Shown here one piece after another: positions 3,426 to 50,945 of a stretch of DNA of 50,945 nt. Source of the DNA: a virus. The notes under the pieces are model-generated. The model made no database searches, was not told the DNA's origin, and was given only the letters and a program-made list of their open reading frames with translations. Within the stretch, counting starts at the first letter, position 1. The number at the start of each line of letters is the position of its first letter. The stretch lies in IMG/VR virus record IMGVR_UViG_3300009314_000016, one strand, 5' to 3'. Both the position numbers and the translations under genes were made by a program.

Positions 3426-3619
3426 TTCTTACCTCCTTCGTCTGACACACAAATATCTATTTCTTTTAGTGACTTGTCTATATACTCTAGTTTTTTAGTC
3501 ACTTCTGTTTTCCACTTAATTATACGTCTCTTTCTCAGTTCAAAAGATTTTCGTACTGCCGGAATATATTTTCTTAATTCCGGCCTAATAAAATGGCGTA
3601 TAGTTACTTTACCTAACAA
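3422..3619 (-). CDS. Hypothetical basic protein; possibly the 3' part of a gene interrupted by in-frame stops
   Basis: Track ORF starts at TTG with no good SD. It shares a frame with upstream mini-ORFs at 3781 and 3718. Confidence 0.45.
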   Translation of the reverse strand: MLGKVTIRHFIRPELRKYIPAVRKSFELRKRRIIKWKTEVTKKLEYIDKSLKEIDICVSDEGGKK

Positions 3620-3790
3620 TTTGTAATTAGTTAGTTTTTCCTGCTACTCTTCTATCAGATCACCCTCTTCTTTTATCTGTTCAGCTAATTCGTATTCCTC
3701 GCACAAACAATGATCCATTATTAAATCTTATAGATCATCTAAAGCCTCGCTTAGCATAATTTTAAATTCTTTTTCGTTCATAAAAACCTC

Positions 3791-5362: not shown

Positions 5363-5439
5363 AGTATACCATAAAAGATAGTTTATGTCTACACTTTTTT
5401 TAACTTTTTTTAACTTTTTTTAACTTTTTTAACTTTTTA
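5363..5439 (-). promoter_or_regulatory. Leftward sigma70-type promoter with phased A-tract upstream element
   Basis: Minus strand: (AAAAAAAGTT)n, GTG, TAGACA (5386-5391), 17 nt, TGgTATACT (-10 at 5363-5368). Confidence 0.65.
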
Positions 5440-5453
5440 TTTATTTATAAAAT

Positions 5454-5478
5454 AAAAGCCTGATTATATCAGGCTTTT
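5454..5478 (-). terminator. Rho-independent terminator after the primase-helicase gene
   Basis: aaaagcctga-ttatat-tcaggctttt hairpin followed by a U-rich tail on the minus strand. Confidence 0.7.
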
Positions 5479-7859
5479 ATCGTTACCAATCTCGGTCTTT
5501 CTCCGTTATCTTTTTGAACTCTTTTCTCTTTTAAATTATCTCGACCTAGCAGATATTTTATAAATGTACGCTGCTTTACAGCAGAATATTCTTCATTGTT
5601 ACACCACTGTTTATATGCTACGAATAAGCTGGTTTTAGGTACTCCACCTTCTTTTTTAGTACCTTCTTGAATAAACCTTAATCCCTCAAATCCCAACCAT
5701 TCGTAAACATTAGAATTGAATTCCTGAACTTTAGTTATATTATCTTTATAATTAGATAAGTAATAATTACTTAGATCACAAAAATTAAGTTTTATTAACT
5801 CCATCAAACCTTGCAGCATAAACCCTACCAAACTATCCGTATCATCTGAAAACATCTGTTCATAATCATGTGATGGTAGGTCAGGTCGTGCTATCTCCTC
5901 GCTTAAAGGGAAAACCGCCAGCCTTCTAGTTACCCCACCGTCGGCAGATATTTTTGGTATGTCGTTAGACATAGCTACATGTTTCGCTAAAGGTATTTCA
6001 TATCTGTGATTTTCGAATTTAGCTTCTACCTTCCAACGTTCCCTAGATATAACCGACTTGAACGCCTCTGAGTTAATCCTGTCATCTAACTCAGTAGTTA
6101 TATTTAACAGTGCTTTAGACAGACTACCTCCGCCAAACTTATCATCTAGAGATGATAAAGGAAACGCCGTTATCATAGAATTAGATCCTATGTCAAATAT
6201 GTTACTGAGGCTTTTAGCTAAAGTAGATTTTCCCATACTACCTTTATATGAATACAAACATAGCATAATGGATGGACTGTAAGACGGTACTAAAAGATTA
6301 CCGAAAAATATTTTTATGAATCTTAATGCGTCCTCGTCAAATTTAGTCTTAAACCAATCTAATATGATCGAATCCTCTTTTATCTTCATGATTTCAGGCC
6401 GGAAATTAGTCTGTAAACTGTATAAAGCCTTGTCATGAGAGTCAAAATCTTTAGTGAATGTAAAACTAGCATCTTTATTTATGTACATAGTACCATTTTT
6501 AAATACTATCGGTATCTTACTATGATAAGTTCTGTCTCTTATAATATCATAAGATAAATAATTATCGTAAGCGGAGTCATTCGCAAATATTCTTGAATAT
6601 ATATCAAAAGTATCTCTGAGTGTTTTAAAGTCCTCAGGTTTCAAAACCTTAGCCAATTTGTTTTTATAATAAGCACCTAATGTGAGGTTGAATACTTCTG
6701 ATTCTAAATAAACATAACAGTTGAAATTTGTATCGTAATAATATATGGCTCCGTGAACTACTAAAACAAACTTGAAAAGAGCTGTCATATGATATAATAT
6801 AAAATCTTCTATCATATCCTGTTTAGTGTTCTTTTCTTTTGTGGGCTTAACTAAAGCACCTATTTTATTAAGTCGTTTCCGTGCATCTGAACCCAAAATA
6901 ATAGTATCATTTCTGTAAAGCTCTAACCATTTTTCAGGATATTTCGCCCACTGCTTATAATACCTATCATCATACTGACTTATGTTTTTTAAAAATTCCT
7001 CATTTTTTTCAAATAAAACCATAACAGGCATAATATTATGCCTGATATAGTCGTATGTACTAGATCTACTTATTTTATCCCAGTCCCTATTGGTAGATCC
7101 GCTTATAAAGTTTTCGTACTCTGTCCAGTCTCTTATAATTTTCTTAAAAGCACTATTATCGAAAACAAAGTCCTCTTTTATCTGTATTTTGTTATCTAAT
7201 TCTTTTATATCTTCCTCTTTATTGAATTTAAGGCAAAAATGATCTAGGTCTATATTTGACATGTATAAATCTGTACAATGCATTAAATCCACGCAATTGT
7301 AATCAGATTTTAAAGGTTTATAACCTATAGAGGGTGCCATAGCTATAAACCTATTACTTGAAAATATTTCTATTTCTATACCTGTTTCTATAAAAAGTTT
7401 TTTCTGCGGATACACATTATTAGATGTTAAAAAGATGTGATAACCACCAGAAACGGTTTGTTCTGATAAAGCTAATATTATATCTCTATCTATTTTTAAA
7501 GTATCTACTAAATAATCTACTACATCGTCAAAAACTTCTTTACCCTTAACCGGGTCTTTTTTACAATCTATATCGATAACTATAATTTTTTTATCCGTTA
7601 TCGATATTCCCGTACCTTTTTTTAATATAAAACCTACCAGCGGGTACGGCACAGTAGAAGGTTTTAAAATAGCTTTTTTGGCCATAACCCGGTTACACAC
7701 CATCGACGAAGGCTCTGTAAAATCTTTAGCTTCTTGGATAGGTATTTTCATTACCTTACCTTTTTTATCCTTTTTATTTATAGCAAATAAATAATCAAAT
7801 TTCAGCATTTTTTGTAACAATAAAAAATTAGTTAAGTCTATAGTAGTTATGCCCGCCAT
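5469..7859 (-). CDS. Bifunctional primase-polymerase (AEP) / SF3 D5-P4-like helicase
   Basis: VIDIDCKKD and SGGYHIF prim-pol motifs at the N-terminus. GSMGKSTLAKS Walker A in the C-terminal half. 796 aa. Confidence 0.85.
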   Translation of the reverse strand: MAGITTIDLTNFLLLQKMLKFDYLFAINKKDKKGKVMKIPIQEAKDFTEPSSMVCNRVMAKKAILKPSTVPYPLVGFILKKGTGISITDKKIIVIDIDCKKDPVKGKEVFDDVVDYLVDTLKIDRDIILALSEQTVSGGYHIFLTSNNVYPQKKLFIETGIEIEIFSSNRFIAMAPSIGYKPLKSDYNCVDLMHCTDLYMSNIDLDHFCLKFNKEEDIKELDNKIQIKEDFVFDNSAFKKIIRDWTEYENFISGSTNRDWDKISRSSTYDYIRHNIMPVMVLFEKNEEFLKNISQYDDRYYKQWAKYPEKWLELYRNDTIILGSDARKRLNKIGALVKPTKEKNTKQDMIEDFILYHMTALFKFVLVVHGAIYYYDTNFNCYVYLESEVFNLTLGAYYKNKLAKVLKPEDFKTLRDTFDIYSRIFANDSAYDNYLSYDIIRDRTYHSKIPIVFKNGTMYINKDASFTFTKDFDSHDKALYSLQTNFRPEIMKIKEDSIILDWFKTKFDEDALRFIKIFFGNLLVPSYSPSIMLCLYSYKGSMGKSTLAKSLSNIFDIGSNSMITAFPLSSLDDKFGGGSLSKALLNITTELDDRINSEAFKSVISRERWKVEAKFENHRYEIPLAKHVAMSNDIPKISADGGVTRRLAVFPLSEEIARPDLPSHDYEQMFSDDTDSLVGFMLQGLMELIKLNFCDLSNYYLSNYKDNITKVQEFNSNVYEWLGFEGLRFIQEGTKKEGGVPKTSLFVAYKQWCNNEEYSAVKQRTFIKYLLGRDNLKEKRVQKDNGERPRLVTIKA

Positions 7860-11952: not shown

Positions 11953-12222
11953 TCAGTCCTCCAGTTTTTTAAAATACAGTATTTTTACTAATGTTTTAGA
12001 TAGCATTTCCTCTATTCTTATTACATTTTTTAAATCAGCTTCTAAATCACCTTTCTTAACTTTTATAAATTCAGTTTTAATATTTGTAGTCACTAAATAA
12101 GTATTTATTTCAATTTCTTCTTTTTCTTCTATTTTTTTACTTTCTTCTATCTGTTTAATTTCTTCTATCTGTTTAATTTCTTCTAGCACGTCATGGATTA
12201 TTTTTTTACTTTCTTCTAACAT
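11953..12222 (-). CDS. Hypothetical coiled-coil protein with IKQIEE repeat
   Basis: Track ORF 11953-12231. The second ATG (12222) has better spacing from GGAGG. Contains an 18-bp tandem repeat at 12142-12185. Confidence 0.65.
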   Translation of the reverse strand: MLEESKKIIHDVLEEIKQIEEIKQIEESKKIEEKEEIEINTYLVTTNIKTEFIKVKKGDLEADLKNVIRIEEMLSKTLVKILYFKKLED

Positions 12223-12271
12223 TTTAACCATCCTCCTTAGATTCAGTAGTAATTTCCTGGACCATGTTAGA

Positions 12272-14842: not shown

Positions 14843-14898
14843 AGTATATCATATAAAAAGTTTTATGTATACACTTTTTTTAACTTTTTTTAACTTTT
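14843..14898 (-). promoter_or_regulatory. Leftward sigma70-type promoter with A-tract upstream element
   Basis: Minus strand: AAAAGTTAAAAAAAGTTAAAAAAGTG, TATACA (14866-14871), 17 nt, TATACT (14843-14848). Confidence 0.6.
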
Positions 14899-14994
14899 CA
14901 CTTACCTAATTCAGTAACTAAAAAAAGAATTTTGTACTTTTAGGTAACTGACCTATCGATAAAAGTATACAAAAATTCTTTTTAAAATTTAATC

Positions 14995-18075: not shown

Positions 18076-18152
18076 AGTATAGCATAGAAATATAAAAAAG
18101 TCTACACTTTTTTTAACTTTTTTTAACTTTTTTTAACTTTTTTTAACTTTTT
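18076..18152 (-). promoter_or_regulatory. Leftward sigma70-type promoter with four phased A-tract repeats
   Basis: Minus strand: (GTTAAAAAAA)x4, GTG, TAGACT (18099-18104), 17 nt, TATACT (18076-18081). Confidence 0.65.
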
Positions 18153-18159
18153 ATGGATA

Positions 18160-18188
18160 TTAACATTTTACTTGAATTATGTTAAACT
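18160..18188 (+). promoter_or_regulatory. Candidate rightward promoter for the late operon
   Basis: TTAACA, 17 nt, TAAACT, about 30 nt upstream of terS. A weak match. Confidence 0.3.
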
Positions 18189-18216
18189 TAATTTAAGTTT
18201 AAACAGGAGTGATATT

Positions 18217-19188
18217 ATGAGTAAAGACAATAAGAAAAAGCAAGCTAGAAAATTATATGAAAGTCCTGATAACTCTCTATATACTTTAGAGGATGTAGCA
18301 GATCATTTAGACTGTTCTGTAAGTTGTATAAAAAAATATGCAGCTGAAGACAGTAGAAACGGTCATAAATGGAAAAAAGTACCTAGATTAAGAAATAGCA
18401 AGAAACAAAATGATAATAGTTTTGAAAAAGATGTGCTGAAGGGTAACCATAGACAGCCTGCCTCGTCTAACCATTCTGACGGTAAAGTAACTGTCAGAAA
18501 AACATACGTAGACGGCGAGGCTGTCAAGGACATTCTAGGGTTTAACCCCCTAGACGAGACTTTTAAAGCCCCCGATCTAACAGATAGAGAGAAAATGTTC
18601 TGTTATTTCTTTTTAGAAACTTTCAGTGTGAAAAATGCTGCTGTAAAAGCAGGTTATGCACCTAAAAATGCAGCTATAATGGGGGCTAGGGTTATGTCTA
18701 GACCAGCCGTCACCGCTGAAATTAACAGACTAAAAGAAATAATAGCTCACAATTGTTTTGTAAGCATAGACAGAATTATAAACAAACACGCATCTATAGC
18801 CTTCAGTGATCTATCAGATTACGTAGACTACGGACATAAATCAGAATTAGTAGAGGTCTATGATGAGGACGGTAATGTGGTAGACTATGAAGAGAAAAAA
18901 GTGGGGTATTTCAATATAAAACCGTTAGCAGAGGTAGACGGATCTATTATAAAAGAAGTTAAGCAAGGGAAATACGGTATGGAAATTAAATTAGAGGATA
19001 GACAGAAATCATTGGATTTCTTAGCTAACTTTATAGCCGTACCTAAAAAAATCGATCAGGATAAACTGGATATAGTTAAAGCCAAATTGAACTTAGATAA
19101 GGAGACTACTTTAGAAGAAATGCTTGAAATGGTAAGAAATTTATCAGACGACGGTATGGAGGAGTTTATCAATGGGTTACAAGAATAA
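18217..19188 (+). CDS. terS: Terminase small subunit
   Basis: FCYFFLETFSVKNAAVKAGYAPKNAAIMGARVMSRPAVTAEINRLKE resembles the Terminase_2 core. AGGAG before ATG 18217. Lies immediately upstream of terL. Confidence 0.8.
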   Translation: MSKDNKKKQARKLYESPDNSLYTLEDVADHLDCSVSCIKKYAAEDSRNGHKWKKVPRLRNSKKQNDNSFEKDVLKGNHRQPASSNHSDGKVTVRKTYVDGEAVKDILGFNPLDETFKAPDLTDREKMFCYFFLETFSVKNAAVKAGYAPKNAAIMGARVMSRPAVTAEINRLKEIIAHNCFVSIDRIINKHASIAFSDLSDYVDYGHKSELVEVYDEDGNVVDYEEKKVGYFNIKPLAEVDGSIIKEVKQGKYGMEIKLEDRQKSLDFLANFIAVPKKIDQDKLDIVKAKLNLDKETTLEEMLEMVRNLSDDGMEEFINGLQE

Positions 19189-20638
19189 CTTACATAAATT
19201 AGCTGTATTTAGTAACAATTATCTAAAAGAGAGAAAACAGGCTAGAACTAGTTTCAAGCATTATATAATTTTCATGAAAAAACATACATATGAGATGTCG
19301 TGGTTTCATGAGGTTATAATAGATGAATTAAATGATTTTATATTAAATGACGTAAAAAAACTAATGTTGTTTGCACCTCCGCAACATGGTAAAAGCGAAC
19401 TATCGTCGAGGCTGGCACCTAGTTTCATATTAGGTGTTAACCCATCCTTGAAATTAGCGATAGTTTGCTATGCCAAAACAATTGCAGAGGATTTCAGTAG
19501 TGATGTACAAGAGATAATAAGCTCGCAGAAGTATGGAGAACTTTTCCCTAACACAAAAATCGATGGTGTCAGAGGGGTAAAAAGAGGGACTCTAAAGAGA
19601 AACAATTATATAGTAAAAACTTCTGAGGGTGGTTATTTGATATCGGTAGGGGTGGGCGGTCCGCTAACCTCAAAATCGGTAGATATCGCTATTATAGATG
19701 ATTTATACAAGTCAAAAGAGGACGCCTGGTCGTCACTCTACAGAAACAAAGTATGGAACTGGTATTTCTATGTTTTAGAAAGAAGATTACATAGAAACAG
19801 TAAAATACTGATTCTATACACCAGGTGGCATGAGGAAGATTTGGCCGGTAAGCTGTTAGCCAGAGAGCAGGAAAACTGGCGAAAAGTTGTTTTCGAGATA
19901 CTGAAAACCGGTAAAATAACAGATAAAAGAGACGTTAGAGAAGTAGGGGAGGCCCTATGGCCTACTAAACACACAAAAGAGTCTGCTGAAAGATGGAAAA
20001 AACTTGACCCTATAAGCTTTGAGGGTCTGGGTCAACAAAATCCTAAACTCGAAAAAGGTAAGATGTATCCTCGGCATAAGGTATATGTTGAGTTGCCTGA
20101 TTTTTCGGATTATCATCATATATACAAGGCCTATGGGGATACAGCCGATGAAGGGGCCGACTACCTGGCAACTGGATCTTACATAGAGTGTGATGGTTAC
20201 TGTTATATAACAGAGATATTATACACTCAAGATCCTATGGAAGTTACAGAACCTTTAACAGCAGCTTTGTATGACAGGAATAATGTGAAACAGGCTTTGA
20301 TAGAAAGCAATAATGGTGGTAAAGGTTTCGCTAGAGAGGTTAGAAGACATCTAAAAACCGACCATAGCAATAATGACTGTGCGGTCAATTGGTTTCATCA
20401 AAGCGATAATAAACAGGCTCGTATCTGGTCAAATGCTGCGAAAGTAATGAATCGTGTAATCTTTCCGGACGGTTGGAAAGACAAATATCCAGACGCTTAC
20501 GCCAGTTTTGTGAACTTTATGAGGGTGGGAAAAAATGAACATGACGATTTTCAGGACTTTTTAACCGGTATAGTAGAGAATATAGAGACTATACCAGATG
20601 ATGATATAGGGGTATATTTTGATAATGAAATGGTATAA
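19172..20638 (+). CDS. terL: Terminase large subunit
   Basis: FAPPQHGKSE Walker A-like motif, IAIIDD Walker B. 488 aa, sits between terS and portal. Confidence 0.85.
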   Translation: MGYKNNLHKLAVFSNNYLKERKQARTSFKHYIIFMKKHTYEMSWFHEVIIDELNDFILNDVKKLMLFAPPQHGKSELSSRLAPSFILGVNPSLKLAIVCYAKTIAEDFSSDVQEIISSQKYGELFPNTKIDGVRGVKRGTLKRNNYIVKTSEGGYLISVGVGGPLTSKSVDIAIIDDLYKSKEDAWSSLYRNKVWNWYFYVLERRLHRNSKILILYTRWHEEDLAGKLLAREQENWRKVVFEILKTGKITDKRDVREVGEALWPTKHTKESAERWKKLDPISFEGLGQQNPKLEKGKMYPRHKVYVELPDFSDYHHIYKAYGDTADEGADYLATGSYIECDGYCYITEILYTQDPMEVTEPLTAALYDRNNVKQALIESNNGGKGFAREVRRHLKTDHSNNDCAVNWFHQSDNKQARIWSNAAKVMNRVIFPDGWKDKYPDAYASFVNFMRVGKNEHDDFQDFLTGIVENIETIPDDDIGVYFDNEMV

Positions 20639-20640
20639 TA
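20632..20640 (+). promoter_or_regulatory. Extended -10 element TGGTATAAT abutting the left end of the palindromic element
   Basis: Same TGGTATAAT as the -10 of the 46603 promoter. No clear -35. Lies in the last codons of terL. Confidence 0.35.
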
Positions 20641-20644
20641 TTAC

Positions 20645-21132
20645 TTTATTTTTTCGAAAAAAGTCGCCCTCAGAGAAAACGATCTTGTTGTGCGTAAGGA
20701 GACGCCGGTATTGAAAGGTATTTAGATAGTAGATTTTACAAGTTCTTTCGAAGAGGCTTGCGCCGGTGGTTAACAATTGTTAGTTATTTGCATTCCTGGT
20801 GACTCAAGGAAATGGTTTTTAGATTATTATAACTGTTATTTAATGTATTCCAGCTAACTCAAGGAAATGGTTTAGATATATTTCAGGTACATTATTTTTA
20901 TACATTTTCATTTCCTTGAGTCACCAGAAACGTAAATATACTATGTATATATTATTACAAAACCATTTCCTTGAGTCACCAGGAACACAAAGAAATAATT
21001 GTTAACCACATTGGTACTTACAGGTCCAGGATTTTAAGGATTTTTAGGGCAAAATATAAGGTTCAGACCCGGCGTCTCCTTACGCACAACAAGATCGTTT
21101 TCTCTGAGGGCGACTTTTTTCGAAAAAATAAA
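20645..21132. repeat. 488-bp mirror-symmetric modular element (perfect 64-bp terminal inverted repeats, nested mirrored boxes, GTAC centre)
   Basis: 20645-20708 is the exact reverse complement of 21069-21132. Inner mirrored blocks lie at 20767-20778/20997-21008, 20793-20819/20959-20985 and 20849-20873/20909-20927. GTAC at 20887-20890 is the exact midpoint. Confidence 0.95.
20793..20985. repeat. Four copies of a ~25-nt box (TCCTGGTGACTCAAGGAAATGGTTT), two forward and two reverse, about 30 nt apart
   Basis: Boxes at 20794-20818 (+), 20849-20873 (+, diverged), 20909-20927 (-), 20960-20984 (-, identical to the first). Confidence 0.9.
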
Positions 21133-21167
21133 TATATATTAAAATACAGTACTTTTGTAAGTGGGAG

Positions 21168-22460
21168 GTGATAAAGATTTTTAAAAAAATTAGAAAAGCA
21201 GTTTCGGAAGCTTTAAAAAAACCTTGGGGTATGGTCAGAACCTCTACTTATCAGCAGTATAGTGTGAACTTTGAAGCCTTTAAGAAAGAAGCATATAACA
21301 ACCCTTTTTTCGCTGCACCCATCAATGAAATAGTAAGAACATTTAATGCAGCAGAAATAGGTGTCTATAGAAAGGTAAAGACATCTGAAGGTGGTACTAA
21401 ACTAGAAAAGGTTGAGAATCACAAGGTCAACAAATGGTTAAAAAAACCTAATTCAGGTCTTACTCAATCGACTTTTCAGAAATACTACCTGGTATGGAAG
21501 TATATCCAAGGGGGATGTCTACTTTACAAGTCTCTAGGGGTAGAAACTAGACAATTGTATATATATTCACCTGATTCTTTTAAGATAAAAAGAGACACTA
21601 ATAATTTTATGATAACAGGTATCAAAATAGGTGAGAATACCATCACTGATCCTGACGAGTTAGCTCAATATCATTTAGTAAGGGAATTTAACATCAATGA
21701 TAAAATAGCGGGGCTAGACGAGAAGTTCGCGCCTGTTATATCTCCTCTAGCTAAAGTAGGTGATATGAGTAACTTTGGTTTTACCCACCAAAACTCACAA
21801 CTTGCTAATTCAGGTAAAAGGGTAGGTATAGTAGAGTATAAGAAAAACCTAGGAGAGGCTAAAGCTGAGGAGTTAAACAGAAAGTTTAATGAATTAGGTA
21901 AAGGTGCGGATAACGCGGGTAACGTAGCTACAGTACATGGAGAGGATTTTAAGTTTACTCCTATGGATGTAACCCCTCAAGAAATGGACTGGTTATCTTC
22001 TATGAAATTTGTTAGGGAGTTAATAGCCTCTACGATAGGGGTTCCTGTGCAGCTAATATCTACGGAAGGTACTACTTATAACAATGTAAAAGAATTTAAG
22101 AAAAAACTGTATTCAGACATAACTGAGCCAGAATTAAAAGCATACAGCCAAGATATGACAGCATTTTTAGTTGATGACCTATCAGACGACGAATTTATCT
22201 GGTACGACTTATCAGGAGTAGAAGAATTGAAAACTAATGCAGCCGATATCGTAGAGCAGCTTAACAAGGCTTTAGAGGGTAAAGTGACTATTAACGAGTT
22301 CAGAAACATAGTAAACACACTGTTAGGAGAATCTATTCAGGTTAAGCTAGAACCTATCCCTGATAAACTAGCTGATCAGGTTTTAGTGTCTACGTCCTTG
22401 ATGCCTTTATCTGATTTAGGTATATCACTAGGTACGGACGGTCCAACCGATGAAGATTAA
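21168..22460 (+). CDS. Portal protein
   Basis: 430 aa, positioned after terL and before the Mu-F-like gene. GTG start abuts GGGAGG, so the exact start is uncertain. Confidence 0.7.
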   Translation: MIKIFKKIRKAVSEALKKPWGMVRTSTYQQYSVNFEAFKKEAYNNPFFAAPINEIVRTFNAAEIGVYRKVKTSEGGTKLEKVENHKVNKWLKKPNSGLTQSTFQKYYLVWKYIQGGCLLYKSLGVETRQLYIYSPDSFKIKRDTNNFMITGIKIGENTITDPDELAQYHLVREFNINDKIAGLDEKFAPVISPLAKVGDMSNFGFTHQNSQLANSGKRVGIVEYKKNLGEAKAEELNRKFNELGKGADNAGNVATVHGEDFKFTPMDVTPQEMDWLSSMKFVRELIASTIGVPVQLISTEGTTYNNVKEFKKKLYSDITEPELKAYSQDMTAFLVDDLSDDEFIWYDLSGVEELKTNAADIVEQLNKALEGKVTINEFRNIVNTLLGESIQVKLEPIPDKLADQVLVSTSLMPLSDLGISLGTDGPTDED

Positions 22461-43887: not shown

Positions 43888-44349
43888 TCACTCCTTAGTT
43901 TTTAATTCGTATAGAAATTCCTCAAACCGGCTTAAATCGTATAAACCATCTATCATATCAGCGAAAAAAACACATTTTAACTTAGGTATATCACTAAAAT
44001 ATAGATTAGACGTATTATTTTTCTTGCAATAATCTAATAAATCGTATAATCGTACTATTATAGCTGATTTATACATAAAAAATTCTATAGACACCAATCC
44101 GTAGCAGTCGGTGAATTTCTTTTCGAATTCTATAAGTGATTTCATTTGATGAGGTTTAATATTACGTATGTTAAAGTAATCAGCCGCAGTACTTTTAAGC
44201 TCATTAAAAACCCTAAAATCTTTAAAATCTATCCGCTCGTCTGCGGGTCTTTCCGCGCCAGTATCCACTAGATTAGCTCTGATTAGATTTATATTTGAGG
44301 CGGCCCAGCTTTTCGCCAGTACCGCCTCAAATTTTTTACCTATATTCAT
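43888..44349 (-). CDS. PD-(D/E)XK nuclease, RecU-like Holliday junction resolvase candidate
   Basis: D...(DF)...ELK arrangement (ADERIDFKDFRVFNELKST). Size and position beside the helicase. Confidence 0.45.
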   Translation of the reverse strand: MNIGKKFEAVLAKSWAASNINLIRANLVDTGAERPADERIDFKDFRVFNELKSTAADYFNIRNIKPHQMKSLIEFEKKFTDCYGLVSIEFFMYKSAIIVRLYDLLDYCKKNNTSNLYFSDIPKLKCVFFADMIDGLYDLSRFEEFLYELKTKE

Positions 44350-46295: not shown

Positions 46296-46571
46296 TTACG
46301 AGTATTCTTCTATAAGAGCTTTTCTTATAAATTGTTTTCTAATTTTAATATGTTTCCATTTTTCTTCACCCTCTTTTGTGTACTTTATTTCTTTCTTTTT
46401 CAAAAGAGAAGGTACTGTATGGTAACTTACTCCGAATATTTCAGCGATATTTTTTCTAGTTAAAATTTCATCATAATCTTTTAATATATCGTCTACTATT
46501 ATTTCTACTTCTGTAAGCTCATTAACCTCACCTGTTACTAGTTTATTTTCTTCTATCACATTCTCCTCCAT
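46296..46571 (-). CDS. Helix-turn-helix DNA-binding protein
   Basis: RKNIAEIFGVSYHTVPSLLKKKEI is HTH-like. First gene after the 46603 promoter. Confidence 0.55.
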   Translation of the reverse strand: MEENVIEENKLVTGEVNELTEVEIIVDDILKDYDEILTRKNIAEIFGVSYHTVPSLLKKKEIKYTKEGEEKWKHIKIRKQFIRKALIEEYS

Positions 46572-46602: not shown

Positions 46603-46648
46603 ATTATACCATATTTTCATAGTTTTGTATAGTTTTTTTAAGTTTTTT
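46603..46648 (-). promoter_or_regulatory. Leftward sigma70-type promoter with A-tracts
   Basis: Minus strand: AAAAAACTTAAAAAAAC, TATACA (46626-46631), 17 nt, TGgTATAAT (-10 at 46603-46608). Confidence 0.65.
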
Positions 46649-47534
46649 ACAGTTTTATATATTCTAAAACTTTAGTCTTAATATTACCAGGTACTCCATG
46701 TTTTTTAAATATATAATTCACTACTTCTTCAGAAGTAAATATATCTGACATACTACCTAAAGTATCGTCCATGATCTGTTTTATATTTTCTTTTTTCTTT
46801 TCTATTAATTCTTTGTCGAAAGAATCTCTTAAATTTAAATTTATCCTTTCCAACATGTTTGTATTAGTTTCGTAAATACCTACCTCTACTTCTCTGCCCA
46901 TATCGTCTTTAGCAGCGGTCAGCCGTATCAGTGCCCCAGGGTTATAGATAATAGTATTAGATTTCGAGGTAACTAAAAACTTATTATGGTTATGCCCTGT
47001 TATTATTAAATCGGCCTGAGATACTACATCTTTAGCCAAGGATGTATCAAACATTTCAACGTTTTCTGATATCATAGTATGCGTTAATATTATATTTCTT
47101 TGCATACCCATCAAATCCATATCGAAATTATTATTTCCGTAAGCGTTGAATTTAGTTACTACATCTTTAGAAATTACCTTATTTTTATTTATTATAACTT
47201 TTAAGTTAGGTACGAGTTTATCTAGTATAGCTAAACTTGTATTTTCGTAAGAATTCAATGAGTTACCTATCATATCATGATTACCTACTACAGTATATAT
47301 AGTAGAGTCTGTCGGAAACATGTTCAGACATTTTTTAGCTAACAATAGTGTTTCGTTGGGTACTTTGGATTTGTCGAAAACATCACCTGTTAAAAATATA
47401 GTTTTTACTCTTTTTTCATCTAAAATCTCTGATACCTGTGTAAATTTTTCTATAAAAGTTTCTTTGATGTCATCTAATCTACTGACAGGGGTATTGATTC
47501 TGAAATGAATATCACCTATTATACCTATCTTCAT
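46647..47534 (-). CDS. SbcD/Mre11-like metallophosphoesterase nuclease
   Basis: IIGDIHF, GDVFD, GNHD and GHNH motifs in the canonical order. Confidence 0.8.
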   Translation of the reverse strand: MKIGIIGDIHFRINTPVSRLDDIKETFIEKFTQVSEILDEKRVKTIFLTGDVFDKSKVPNETLLLAKKCLNMFPTDSTIYTVVGNHDMIGNSLNSYENTSLAILDKLVPNLKVIINKNKVISKDVVTKFNAYGNNNFDMDLMGMQRNIILTHTMISENVEMFDTSLAKDVVSQADLIITGHNHNKFLVTSKSNTIIYNPGALIRLTAAKDDMGREVEVGIYETNTNMLERINLNLRDSFDKELIEKKKENIKQIMDDTLGSMSDIFTSEEVVNYIFKKHGVPGNIKTKVLEYIKL

Positions 47535-48307: not shown

Positions 48308-48925
48308 TTAATCCTCCATTCTCATAATATTTATTTTATTTGTTAATTTGTCGGTTCTGTAATCGTATTTTTTATGAGATATTAAAAGTATCTGTATATT
48401 TTTTTCTTCGGAAAATCTTTTTAAAAATTCTAAAAACCTGGTAGAGGCTTCTAGATCTACCATTTTCATAGTCTCGTCTAGTAATATGATCTTCTGTCTC
48501 TGTATATATACAGCAGATAGGTATAACAATAAACCTATGATAGTTATAATACCCCCTCCGTCTCCCTTGAAAGGATGTTTTAGGAGTAATTCATTTAAAT
48601 AAAAGTCAGGTTCTATCTTACCCCTTTTCAAAACAAAGTCCATAGAGAACTTTAATTCTTTTTCGGGATAAGTGTATTTCAGGCCTGAATTAACTATATT
48701 TTCTAACATAAAAATCTCTTGTTTTTTATAGTTAGAGATTTCCAGTATAATTTTCTTGGCTTCTTCTAAACTGTCTAGTTCTAAGCTATCTTTTAAAATT
48801 ACCCTAGCCAGAGACTTTACAGACCCTTTGATAGAGTTAATTCTGAAATCTCTCTGCATAATTATAGTATTAACTCTAGCTATGCAATCACATATCGACT
48901 TTTCTAAGTATTTCTTCTGATTCAT
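48308..48925 (-). CDS. Rad50/SbcC-like ATPase, C-terminal half (signature-like, Walker B, H-loop)
   Basis: GDGGGIITIIGLLLYLS, IILLDETMKMVD, ILLISHK. GGAGAG before the ATG. Confidence 0.65.
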   Translation of the reverse strand: MNQKKYLEKSICDCIARVNTIIMQRDFRINSIKGSVKSLARVILKDSLELDSLEEAKKIILEISNYKKQEIFMLENIVNSGLKYTYPEKELKFSMDFVLKRGKIEPDFYLNELLLKHPFKGDGGGIITIIGLLLYLSAVYIQRQKIILLDETMKMVDLEASTRFLEFLKRFSEEKNIQILLISHKKYDYRTDKLTNKINIMRMED

Positions 48926-49153: not shown

Positions 49154-50326
49154 TTAACCCCCTATTTGTTTTTTACACAAAGGACATGCCTGTCCTTTTA
49201 ATTCATTGTCTATGTCAGATAATTCATCCGAATAACCTGATAGTTCATCCTCTGATGCATGGTACATATTTATTTTCTTTTTTAAATTTCTAAGTGTTTT
49301 CACACTATCATAGATATCGCTAGATGAATCAGTTATTTTAGTTACTTCTATATTGCAATGTAAAAGTTTTTCTTTGTATTCTTTAAGTTTTTCTAATGTA
49401 AAATATTCTGCTGTAGAATTAATTCTATGTAAAGTAAAATCATATTTATTCAGACTTTTCAACTGGTTTAACATAGATAAAGACTTGTATATGCTTTCAC
49501 AGTCAGTAGACAATGAGTCTAGTAGTTTTATAGCATTTAGACTTATTTTTTCCTTATACCTGATAAGTTCTTTTAGTACAGATCGAATATCGTTAAGTTT
49601 AGCTACAGTGACTTTGCAGGTTAAATCTTTTATACTAGATAGAAATTTTATGTCTACAGACAGTCTATATAACCTGCTGAATATAGTAACGTCGTAATCT
49701 AGTTTATCAGGTATCACATGCTGTATTACTTTTAGATTTTTTAACAATAAATGCAAATTGTTTGATACTTCTAGTTCGCTTTTTATGATAGACCCGTCTA
49801 GGGTTATTTTCGATAAAGCGTCTAAATCATCTAATTTAGAATCTAACTTAACCTGATTACTATCTACAGAAGATTTGAGTGATGTTATATCTTTTGATAT
49901 GTCGGATAAACCTTTCTCTATATTCTCTATATCAAATAACTCGTTTAGTATGTTTATCCTCTCTCCAGGTTTATCTGATAACAGATAAATACTATCAAAC
50001 TGACTATACAAAACTAATTTTAAGTCTATTCTAATTAAATTTTCCAGAGGTTCTTTCGTGGTACCGACCTCTTTACCATCGAGATACACAAAATATTTAG
50101 TACCTTTGCAGTATCTTTCTACGGTAAACTTTTCAGTGATTATTTTTACAGAGCTTGAGTTCTCTCCGTCAGTGATAAAATTATTCTTACCGCCATGTAT
50201 AAGCCAATGGATCGCATGGAAGATAGCTGATTTACCGGAACCGTTAGTTCCTGTTAGAACAGCTAAACTGCTAAATGATATATCTAAGTTTCTGTGACAC
50301 ATGTAATTTTTTATAAGTATCTTCAT
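49154..50326 (-). CDS. Rad50/SbcC-like ATPase, N-terminal half with coiled coil ending at a CxxC zinc hook
   Basis: LTGTNGSGKSAIFHAI Walker A, a long coiled coil, then C-terminal GQACPLCKKQIGG*. Confidence 0.7.
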   Translation of the reverse strand: MKILIKNYMCHRNLDISFSSLAVLTGTNGSGKSAIFHAIHWLIHGGKNNFITDGENSSSVKIITEKFTVERYCKGTKYFVYLDGKEVGTTKEPLENLIRIDLKLVLYSQFDSIYLLSDKPGERINILNELFDIENIEKGLSDISKDITSLKSSVDSNQVKLDSKLDDLDALSKITLDGSIIKSELEVSNNLHLLLKNLKVIQHVIPDKLDYDVTIFSRLYRLSVDIKFLSSIKDLTCKVTVAKLNDIRSVLKELIRYKEKISLNAIKLLDSLSTDCESIYKSLSMLNQLKSLNKYDFTLHRINSTAEYFTLEKLKEYKEKLLHCNIEVTKITDSSSDIYDSVKTLRNLKKKINMYHASEDELSGYSDELSDIDNELKGQACPLCKKQIGG

Positions 50327-50355: not shown

Positions 50356-50419
50356 ATTTTAACATAAAAAAGACTGTTTGTCTACACTTTTTTTAACTTT
50401 TTTTAACTTTTTTTAACTT
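50356..50419 (-). promoter_or_regulatory. Leftward sigma70-type promoter with three phased A-tract repeats
   Basis: Minus strand: (GTTAAAAAAA)x3, GTG, TAGACA (50379-50384), 17 nt, TAAAAT (50356-50361). Confidence 0.65.
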
Positions 50420-50439
50420 AACTACTCTTTCGTTTAGCA

Positions 50440-50826
50440 ATTGTAAGTATACTTATTTTTTTTCTTTTTTTTTTTTATTTATTTTTTCATTCCCTTGAGT
50501 CAATAGAAATGTATTATATTAAGTATATATGAAATATATGATACATATAGTAAAAGTGTAAATAATTTATAAAAAGTTAAGAAAAGTGTTTCTGTCGTTG
50601 AGTACATGTTTTTTACCTTTTTTAATTTTTTACTTTTTAAAACTTTTTTTTCTGGAAAAACTGGTACACAGATTTTCGAAGTTTAAGAAAAGTTAACAAA
50701 AGTTATAAAAACTATTCGTAAAAAGTTAATAAAAGTGTAAAAATACAGTAAAAGTGTGTACCACCTATGTACCACCTATGTACCACTTAGCTTTAAAATG
50801 TACCAGTTTTGAGGGTAAATGTACCA
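50440..50826. other. Non-coding origin-like / genome-end-like region
   Basis: No ORF with an SD. Contains a 32-nt poly-T tract (50456-50487), eight AAAAGT(G/T)(T/A) boxes, a 20-bp direct repeat and five TGTACCA(C/G) iterons. Confidence 0.5.
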
Positions 50827-50827
50827 C
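50757..50827 (+). repeat. Five TGTACCA(C/G) iterons, the first three as an 11-bp tandem repeat
   Basis: Copies at 50757, 50768, 50779, 50799 (TGTACCAG) and 50820. Confidence 0.9.
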
Positions 50828-50945
50828 TTATTAGACCGGTTTACTAAAAAACTGCGAGATCGTGAAAACGGGTGCGAACCCAACGACATTTTTGTTATAT
50901 ATGAAATATATGATAGAACCTTTACATAAATGGTGTTATAAATAA
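50827..50945. repeat. Terminal direct repeat copy 2 (identical to 1-119)
   Basis: Exact 119-nt identity with the start of the window. Confidence 0.95.

Follow-up and report, generated by a model that had tools for sequence, protein, structure and literature searches.

The Correia (NEMIS) elements of Neisseria, of which there are hundreds of copies, are 100–155 bp long and have ends of 26 bp and a duplicated TA; they can supply promoters, be co-transcribed with their neighbours, form a long hairpin that is cut by RNase III and terminate transcription. The RNase III hairpins and terminators that lie between phage gene blocks, such as the R sites of T7, are local structures of ~20–30 bp, and the pac site of phage P1 is a 162-bp sequence inside a terminase gene with Dam-methylated hexamers, which are repeated on both sides of the cut. 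Here, such systems are compared with a 488-bp mirrored, non-coding element (positions 20645–21132) located between the genes for the large terminase subunit (terL) and the portal protein in the virus record IMGVR_UViG_3300009314_000016 from IMG/VR; the whole stretch of DNA that was analysed, 50,945 nucleotides (nt), is denoted the window, and coordinates refer to it unless a relative is named. The ~35-nt units of REP/BIME sequences, highly repeated per genome and linked to RAYT transposases, are associated both with the binding of proteins and with the formation of transcript ends (PMC2817692, PMC3333891). The IIR non-coding RNA of the PLE satellites and the regulatory RNAs C4 of phage P1 and CI of phage P4 pair with the leaders of several of their own genes (PMC7567579).

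Judging from its sequence, the element is best explained as a lineage-specific non-coding expression cassette that was inserted at the terL-portal junction and is seen only in this phage. More specifically, with a probability of roughly 40%, it could be a cassette of internal promoters that serve the head genes, in which pairing of the two arms would block or process only the transcripts that read through from terL. This model derives from the strand asymmetry of the −10-like hexamers in the interior of the element, from the portal-facing promoter-like sites in the corresponding gaps of related phages, and from the folding energies of the arms.

The terL gene ends at 20638 and the portal open reading frame (ORF) starts at 21168, which leaves a 529-nt gap, the sole large non-coding stretch of the late gene block in a genome that is very compact elsewhere. 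The element that fills most of this gap, together with a related unit at a distant site, consists of the following modules:

20645–20708, left arm: starts with the palindrome TTTTTTCGAAAAAA; its GC-rich core of 46 nt occupies 20663–20708
20709–20765, unique segment U1L: 57 nt, unrelated to its mirror partner (p = 0.9)
20782–20888, + strand, tandem 55-nt units c1 and c2: boxes at 20793–20819 and 20848–20873, in direct repeat with 55-nt spacing
20889–20993, − strand, tandem 55-nt units c3 and c4: boxes at 20908–20930 and 20959–20985, in the orientation opposite to c1 and c2
21010–21068, + strand, unique segment U1R: 59 nt, the predicted leader from the fourth promoter-like site to the right arm
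21069–21132, right arm: identical to the left arm in inverted orientation
50471–50530, + strand, fifth, diverged 55-nt unit: between an early promoter (~50380) and the iteron cluster (50756–50827)

The initial annotation, made from the sequence alone, described a series of nested mirrored blocks, and this description largely stands. The arms are reverse complements at 64 of 64 positions, and at 93% identity the repeat can be followed over 80 nt (20636–20715 and 21062–21141); the inner mirrored block GTGGTTAACAATTGTT (20766–20781 and 20994–21009, 16 nt) is 94% complementary; the mirrored box TTCCTGGTGACTCAAGGAAATGG occurs four times, on the + strand at 20793 and 20848 and on the − strand at 20908–20930 and 20963–20985, with 0 occurrences expected by chance; and the midpoint is indeed the tetranucleotide GTAC (20887–20890). 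The segments between the mirrored blocks are, as had been noticed, unrelated in sequence and matched in length (for U1, 57 vs 59 nt, with a local alignment p of ~0.9). The high GC content ascribed to the arms holds for the 46-nt core (56.5%, the 99.5th percentile) but not for the full arm (43.8%, the 89th percentile), and the element as a whole is at the genome average (34.6% vs 33.8%). Two parts of the description had to be corrected: the boxes are not free-standing but belong to 55-nt tandem units, two per half, of which ~44 nt are similar, and the unit is not confined to the terL-portal locus, given that 20892–20952 aligns with 50471–50530 (79% identity over 61 nt, E = 1.6e-8). The modules are sharply delimited. 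The centre of the element (20874–20908) is AT-rich and imperfect as a palindrome, with 26–29% GC in the central region. The two ORFs that mirror each other across the element, 20971–21171 on the + strand and 20561–20776 on the − strand, are treated as spurious, with no Pfam match, no ATG and no Shine-Dalgarno sequence.

The main signal in the interior of the element is a set of four portal-facing promoter-like sites, which none of the four hypotheses put forward in the initial annotation captures. The core of the box, TGACTCA, is near-palindromic, and each box accordingly provides a hexamer that resembles a −35 element on either strand (GTGACT or CTAACT in one direction and TTGAGT in the other). 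A valid −10 hexamer, i.e. one that has A as its second and T as its sixth base and agrees with TATAAT in at least four of the six positions, is found exactly 17 nt past the box hexamer at all four boxes on the + strand, compared with one of the four on the − strand. Against a background of ~0.12 per site for a valid −10 at a distance of 16–18 nt, the probability of four out of four is ~2e-4 to 7e-4, whereas one out of four is the chance expectation; the four −10 hexamers lie in four different non-mirrored spacers and are therefore independent. All four sites (P1–P4, not to be confused with the phages of the same names) have the spacing of sigma-70/sigma-A promoters (−35 and −10 separated by 17 ± 1 nt):

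20799–20827, + strand, site P1: GTGACT-17-GATTAT
20854–20882, + strand, site P2: CTAACT-17-TATATT
20916–20944, + strand, site P3: TTGAGT-17-TACTAT
20971–20999, + strand, site P4: TTGAGT-17-AATAAT, 7 nt upstream of U1R
20951–20979, − strand, the sole leftward promoter-like site: GTGACT-17-AATAAT, with TG just before it

The left-hand mirror of site P4 reads TTGAGT-20-AACAAT: the difference between the inserts of 14 and 11 nt, recorded in the initial annotation, translates into a 17-nt spacer on the right and a 20-nt spacer in the left mirror copy. Thus, on a simple reading of these sites, the near-palindromic core could serve as a −35 element on either strand, and the non-mirrored inserts would set the direction of transcription. 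The composite motif TTCATTNNNTTGA was also considered as a general promoter class and was discarded because its exact hits in the window are just c3 and the fifth unit.

The arms contribute a second, direction-dependent signal in the form of a terminator-like structure:

21095–21120, + strand, weak local hairpin UCGUUUUC-UCU-GAGGGCGA followed by CUUUUUU: a terminator-like hit
20657–20682, − strand, mirror copy of the weak hairpin and U-run: read leftwards

Due to its three G-U pairs, the arm hairpin is stable just in RNA that is read outward, and its folding energy is −7.4 kcal/mol, compared with −13.8 to −18.8 kcal/mol for the ordinary terminators of this phage. The RNA duplex between the two arms reaches −117.9 kcal/mol, of which the 46-bp core, located directly ahead of the run of six U, yields −95.8 kcal/mol; closing this duplex requires a 360-nt loop. 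The predicted stem, 64 bp without a mismatch, exceeds the minimum of ~20 bp of double-stranded RNA in an RNase III site. The whole element, transcribed on one strand, folds into a rod at −235 kcal/mol (z = −22.8), in contrast to the half-element RNAs, which on either strand fold no better than shuffled sequences (z from −1.2 to +0.8). This difference argues against two structured RNA genes and for a property of the whole element, either as read-through RNA or as single-stranded DNA. The initial annotation had proposed a long RNA hairpin between the terminase and the head genes, and this idea is physically sound and makes up half of the model considered here, but on its own it leaves the interior of the element unexplained.

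In the promoter-cassette model, the four interior units would act as tandem promoters for the portal and head genes, with predicted starts near 20834, 20889, 20951 and 21006 on the + strand; the −10 hexamers at 17-nt spacing in all four units on this strand, as opposed to one of the four on the other, suggest that they would fire rightward. The two perfect arms would then distinguish transcripts by their origin. An RNA begun inside the element would contain the right arm alone, form the weak hairpin with its U-run and pass into portal, whereas the read-through RNA from terS-terL would contain both arms and form a 46–64-bp duplex directly before the six U, which would both terminate transcription very strongly and serve as a substrate of RNase III. 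In this manner, the element would be an insulator between the terminase operon and the head operon. The box is probably also bound by a regulator, for the conservation reaches beyond the −35 hexamer, and the fifth unit near 50.5 kb may be another site for this protein, for which the 91-amino acid HTH protein encoded at 46296–46571 is one candidate. The anatomy, the asymmetry of the promoter geometry between the strands, the folding energies and the lack of the element in related phages come directly from the analysis; firing of the sites, in vivo pairing of the arms and binding of a protein to the box are inferred.

The terL-portal junction was compared across 16 loci that have a related TerL or portal protein and a readable junction, the closest in the protein collection having ~63% identity in TerL and ~65% in the portal protein. 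In 12 of the 16 loci, terL abuts portal:

L006, L007, L009, L010, L012, L056, L057, L060, L092, L095, L096 and L098: gap of 0–13 nt
L097: gap of 70 nt
L093: gap of 163 nt
L008: gap of ~750 nt
L011: ~800 nt past terL, without a large ORF and without comparable repeats

Because most of the relatives have terL abutting portal, the element is, by this comparison, an insertion relative to the ancestral layout and is not needed by the phage group. A portal-facing sigma-70-like site is found in every relative gap of at least 70 nt among L008, L097 and L093:

L008: TTGACC-18-TATAAT, 11 of 12 matches, inside L008's own repeated box
L097: TTTACT-17-TATAAT, 10 of 12 matches, with TG upstream
L093: TTGACG-17-CATCAT, followed by a 27-bp hairpin

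The junction of L008, the closest relative, is occupied by a different repeat-rich sequence. The motif TTAACAATTG, common to this insert and that of the window, is over-represented across L008 and not in the window; with at most one mismatch, it occurs 14 times in positions 1–4782 of L008 (1.3 expected), two of these copies preceding terS and several falling within the terL-portal insert, and is probably a regulatory motif of L008. The TerL of L093 (1354–3837 of that locus) is 827 amino acids long and includes LAGLIDADG/Hom_end domains, so the terminase gene of this relative carries an intein or a homing endonuclease insertion. A correlation of the element with the type of the small terminase subunit (TerS), or with an extra TerS domain, was considered and rejected: there are relatives with a Terminase_2-type TerS that lack the element, and the TerS of the window phage has no extra domain.

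Several observations weigh against the promoter-cassette model. Taken individually, P1–P4 are weak, with 8–9 of the 12 matches, and only P4 reaches 9. Under a looser rule (at least 8 of 12), there are five hits on the + strand and two on the − strand of the scanned interval compared with ~2.9 per strand in shuffles of the element, which is chance density; the promoter signal thus consists in the strand asymmetry (4/4 vs 1/4), not in the density of hits, and the asymmetry test was devised after inspection of the sequence. The fifth unit, on direct reading, has a valid −10 on neither strand. The identity of the arms at 64 of 64 positions, beside unrelated sequence, suggests a recent duplication or gene conversion that the model does not explain, and U1L and the left-hand units have no role in it beyond carrying the left arm. 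The comparison with relatives is equivocal as well: the 12 of 16 loci without a gap imply that the cassette is inessential to the phage group, and homology between the insert of L008 and that of the window is not established (z = 1.2 for the arm and 3.2 for the box region), with just short motifs in common.

The element is a singleton in all collections that were searched. Searches with blastn yielded no match in INPHARED or PLSDB, and exact-seed pattern scans of IMG/VR with the box, the box pair, two arm seeds and both unique segments yielded none either; in the representative genomes of GTDB, five hits were obtained, with extensions of 19–21 nt, compared with an estimated ~4 expected by chance. 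The IMG/VR and GTDB scans were based on exact seeds, which diverged copies could escape. Within the window, there is no other copy of the arm. A look-up of contigs that encode an identical TerL found none.

The reality of the sequence is attested by a second assembly. The Joint Genome Institute contig Ga0117909_1001627 (50,941 bp) begins at window position 19538 and so represents a different circular permutation of the same phage; it is identical to the window at 5,923 of the 5,923 compared bases, the whole element included. Multiple displacement amplification or mis-assembly can generate palindromic junctions, but a snap-back event would not make unique non-mirrored segments, and the element is internal, with intact terL and portal genes on its flanks. 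Given that a second contig with another start point carries the identical element, a chimeric artefact of assembly or amplification is very unlikely. The window itself is a circularly assembled phage genome of ~50.8 kb, as follows from the exact 119-bp terminal direct repeat (1–119 and 50827–50945), and the different permutation of the second contig fits a genome that is circularly permuted or circularised. The inverted repeats flank promoter-like sites; as regards a possible inverton, the element has the same orientation in both contigs, and no recombinase was detected in the phage.

Among the alternatives, a non-autonomous mobile insertion, similar to a miniature inverted-repeat transposable element (MITE) or a foldback element, with promoter and terminator activity that would be incidental as in the Correia elements, is possible if rather unlikely. 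It had been among the hypotheses of the initial annotation, and inverted ends are certainly there: perfect 64-bp terminal inverted repeats beside unrelated internal sequence, an arm core of foreign-looking GC content, a non-coding interior in which neither mirror ORF matches any family, and absence from the same junction in nearly all relatives, to which the different complex repeat insert of L008 adds the hint of an insertion hotspot. The hypothesis falters on the other hallmarks of mobility. No second copy was found in the genome, in IMG/VR (four seeds), in GTDB beyond chance 19-mers, or in INPHARED and PLSDB, where the scans of the large collections relied on exact seeds; the phage proteins revealed no transposase or recombinase; and, on direct reading, no target-site duplication is visible at 20645/21132 or at 20636/21141, although the flanks (ATATTAC on the left and TATATAT on the right) are AT-rich, and a 2-bp TA duplication would be compatible with them. 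The occurrence of a fifth internal unit in the phage's own control region, moreover, makes the interior look native. By analogy with the Correia elements, a mobile origin and the promoter-cassette function are not exclusive and could both hold. The singleton status, the dispensability in relatives, the units duplicated both in tandem and in inversion, and the perfect arms, which suggest a very recent duplication, are also what one would expect if template switching or inverted duplication had taken place repeatedly in a recombination-active phage and left behind a functionless, selectively neutral by-product. We nevertheless consider this origin improbable: the element is the only large non-coding stretch of the late block of an otherwise very compact genome, its boundaries are sharp and its non-mirrored segments are matched in length, and the asymmetric −10 pattern has p <1e-3.

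The element could also be a dyad-symmetric, protein-bound DNA site: a pac site whose boxes would surround a cut at the centre, a secondary origin of replication whose binding sites would lie on either side of the AT-rich centre, or a site of recombination or cruciform formation for the SbcCD-like and RecU-like nucleases. The two forward and two reverse boxes around a centre of 26–29% GC bear out the two-fold layout on which the initial annotation based its pac hypothesis and resemble the P1 pac site and the oriL and oriS palindromes of herpes simplex virus; furthermore, the box recurs near the iteron region, and the phage encodes SbcC/SbcD-like, RecU-like and P4-alpha/D5-like proteins. This explanation is nonetheless quite unlikely, and its pac version is weakened in particular: L093, L095 and L098 have a Terminase_2-type TerS and terL-portal gaps of 8–163 nt without such an element, the TerS here has no extra domain, the element lies downstream of terL and neither in nor near terS, the sole iteron cluster is at 50756–50827 with no iterons in the element, and the strand asymmetry of the −10 hexamers is unexpected for a symmetric protein-binding site. 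The element could instead comprise two divergent small RNA genes of ~110–115 nt, each starting at an inner box, running outward through a ~58-nt unique segment, ending at the arm hairpin with its U-run, and directed at host or rival targets. The presence of hairpin and U-run facing outward in both arms, with G-U pairs that make the hairpin stable just in that direction, and the position of P4 7 nt upstream of U1R fit such genes, for which there is a precedent in the abundant non-coding RNA between inverted repeats of phage satellites (PMC7567579). The leftward partner, however, has no usable promoter (a 20-nt spacer or no −10), neither candidate folds better than shuffles, there is no Rfam match, and there are no long matches in the genome and no significant pairing with 61 translation-initiation regions of the phage, so that small RNAs of this kind are hardly probable. 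The related claim of two structured-RNA genes with guide-like inserts is unsupported on the same evidence: folding of the halves is at chance level, nothing unusual is matched by the unique segments, and a scan of the whole window at the Rfam gathering thresholds gave no match, while an E-value scan of the region returned just plant miRNA-hairpin models far below threshold, i.e. noise. In detail, U1L and U1R have no unusual or long matches within the phage genome, no unusual pairing with the 61 initiation regions and no exact 20-mer in IMG/VR; a guide or antisense role against the phage itself is rejected on account of the first two of these results. A two-guide cassette, in which paired small RNAs would share the 64-nt arm as a 3' scaffold and carry unrelated, programmable 5' seeds of 58–60 nt against host or competitor targets, is a long shot; what the tests exclude in this case is self-targets and a stable scaffold fold alone, and, if real, the cassette would be phage-borne and without a described family. 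A mini-array or solitary repeat of the CRISPR type was rejected given that the similarity covers ~44 nt of the 55-nt period and that no model of CRISPR direct repeats hits the element. A protelomerase target (tel) site was discarded as well: the centre at 20874–20908 is not palindromic, and no protelomerase-like protein turned up in the Pfam/PHROG scans of the proteins searched.

The genes around the element form the rightward late block, in the order TerS, TerL, the 529-nt gap, portal, a MuF-like protein and capsid:

18172–19188, + strand: TerS (Terminase_2)
19172–20638, + strand: TerL
21168–22460, + strand: portal

The terS ORF is listed from TTG 18172, but a good Shine-Dalgarno sequence (AGGAGTG) precedes ATG 18217, which is probably the true start and gives a protein of 323 amino acids. 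The listed start of portal, GTG 21168, falls within the Shine-Dalgarno sequence GGGAGGTGA (21163–21179), and the sole in-frame codon at a normal distance from the latter is ATT 21177, the equivalent codon of L008 being ATA (3616–3632 of that locus); this arrangement suggests a non-canonical, low-efficiency start codon that is conserved in both phages. The − strand blocks encode a family-A DNA polymerase, a P4-alpha/D5-like primase-helicase, a helicase, a ligase, a 5'-3' exonuclease, and SbcC/SbcD-like and RecU-like proteins. The SbcC/Rad50-like ATPase is seemingly split into two ORFs that are ~228 nt apart and, together with an SbcD/Mre11-like nuclease and a RecU-like resolvase, accounts for the − strand ORFs 49154–50326, 48308–48925, 46647–47534 and 43888–44349; it is noteworthy that the same genome has both enzymes that cut hairpins and a 488-bp near-palindrome. 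No integrase, transposase or recombinase was detected among the phage proteins in the Pfam/PHROG scans, and a search for tRNA and tmRNA genes found none.

By TerL, the nearest cultured relatives are the Bacteroides B40-8-like phages, at just 40% identity. A Shine-Dalgarno site with a start codon is present at 67% of the ORFs compared with 7% of random windows, and such sites are rarely used by Bacteroidota; hence the host is probably not a member of this phylum. Together with four classic sigma-70-type early promoters, this strong use of Shine-Dalgarno sites shows that the phage employs expression signals of the host type and makes sigma-70 models appropriate for it. The early promoters (5387–5440, 14867–14900, 18100–18152 and 50380–50420, all on the − strand and facing leftwards) have in common A-tract repeats, GTGTAGACA, a 17-nt spacer and TATACT; each consists of 3–4 phased GTTAAAAAAA repeats with a 10-nt period, which are likely an UP element or bent DNA, followed by GTGTAGACA, a spacer that contains TATG, and TATACT or TAAAAT. 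The iterons, five direct copies of ATGTACCAC at 50756–50827 (with an 11-nt period in the first three), lie beside AT-rich DNA that is rich in A-tracts; along with the P4-alpha/D5-like primase-helicase (5469–7859, with DUF5906 and Pox_D5 domains), this cluster is the best candidate for the replication origin, and the element, which has no iterons, was dismissed as a primary origin of the iteron type, although a different initiator that binds the box is conceivable. Two tandem repeats lie elsewhere on the − strand: a perfect 15-nt repeat, AATCTTCTTCCGGTA (4.9 copies, 752–824), which encodes a repeated pentapeptide in a 326-amino acid protein without a family match (ORF 96–1076), and an 18-nt repeat, TTTCTTCTATCTGTTTAA (3.5 copies, 12123–12185), inside the small ORF 11953–12231.

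If the promoter-cassette model is true, one compact element separates the expression of the terminase from that of the head genes in this phage, by combining new promoters with a long-range pairing of arms that halts or cuts the upstream transcripts alone, a logic that would be useful in the annotation of phage genomes and in the design of synthetic insulators. Such a conclusion would have limited reach: the phage is uncultured and the element a singleton, the relatives manage without it, and it has no bearing on a long-standing question.

Like the P1 pac site, the element has short repeated boxes on both sides of a central region; unlike pac, it follows terL, and relatives whose TerS belongs to the same family lack it. 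With REP/BIME sequences (PMC2817692, PMC3333891), it shares imperfect palindromic units in alternating orientation, linkers of set length and an intergenic location, but the unit here is 55 nt long and present five times, and neither a RAYT nor a HUH protein was detected. As in the IIR of PLE, for which an origin from a MITE has been proposed (PMC7567579), a non-coding region bounded by inverted repeats resides in a phage-type genome; in contrast to IIR, C4 and CI, no pairing with own leaders was found among the 61 initiation regions. The long double-stranded RNA stem that is predicted in a polycistronic transcript, at the boundary of gene blocks, recalls the T7 R sites, whereas the 64-bp length of the stem, the 360-nt loop that holds promoter-like sites and the formation in read-through RNA alone set it apart. 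The Correia elements and similar bacterial MITEs are likewise small, non-coding, intergenic and bounded by inverted repeats; the differences are the length of 488 bp, the 64-bp ends, the internal tandem units, the lack of a visible duplication and the single copy without a relative found. Overall, the element is demonstrably a member of no family and is best called a single-copy, elaborately mirrored intergenic expression cassette, which, by analogy, would be closest in behaviour to the promoter-bearing, hairpin-forming MITEs of the Correia type and to the RNase III and terminator hairpins at the boundaries of phage operons.

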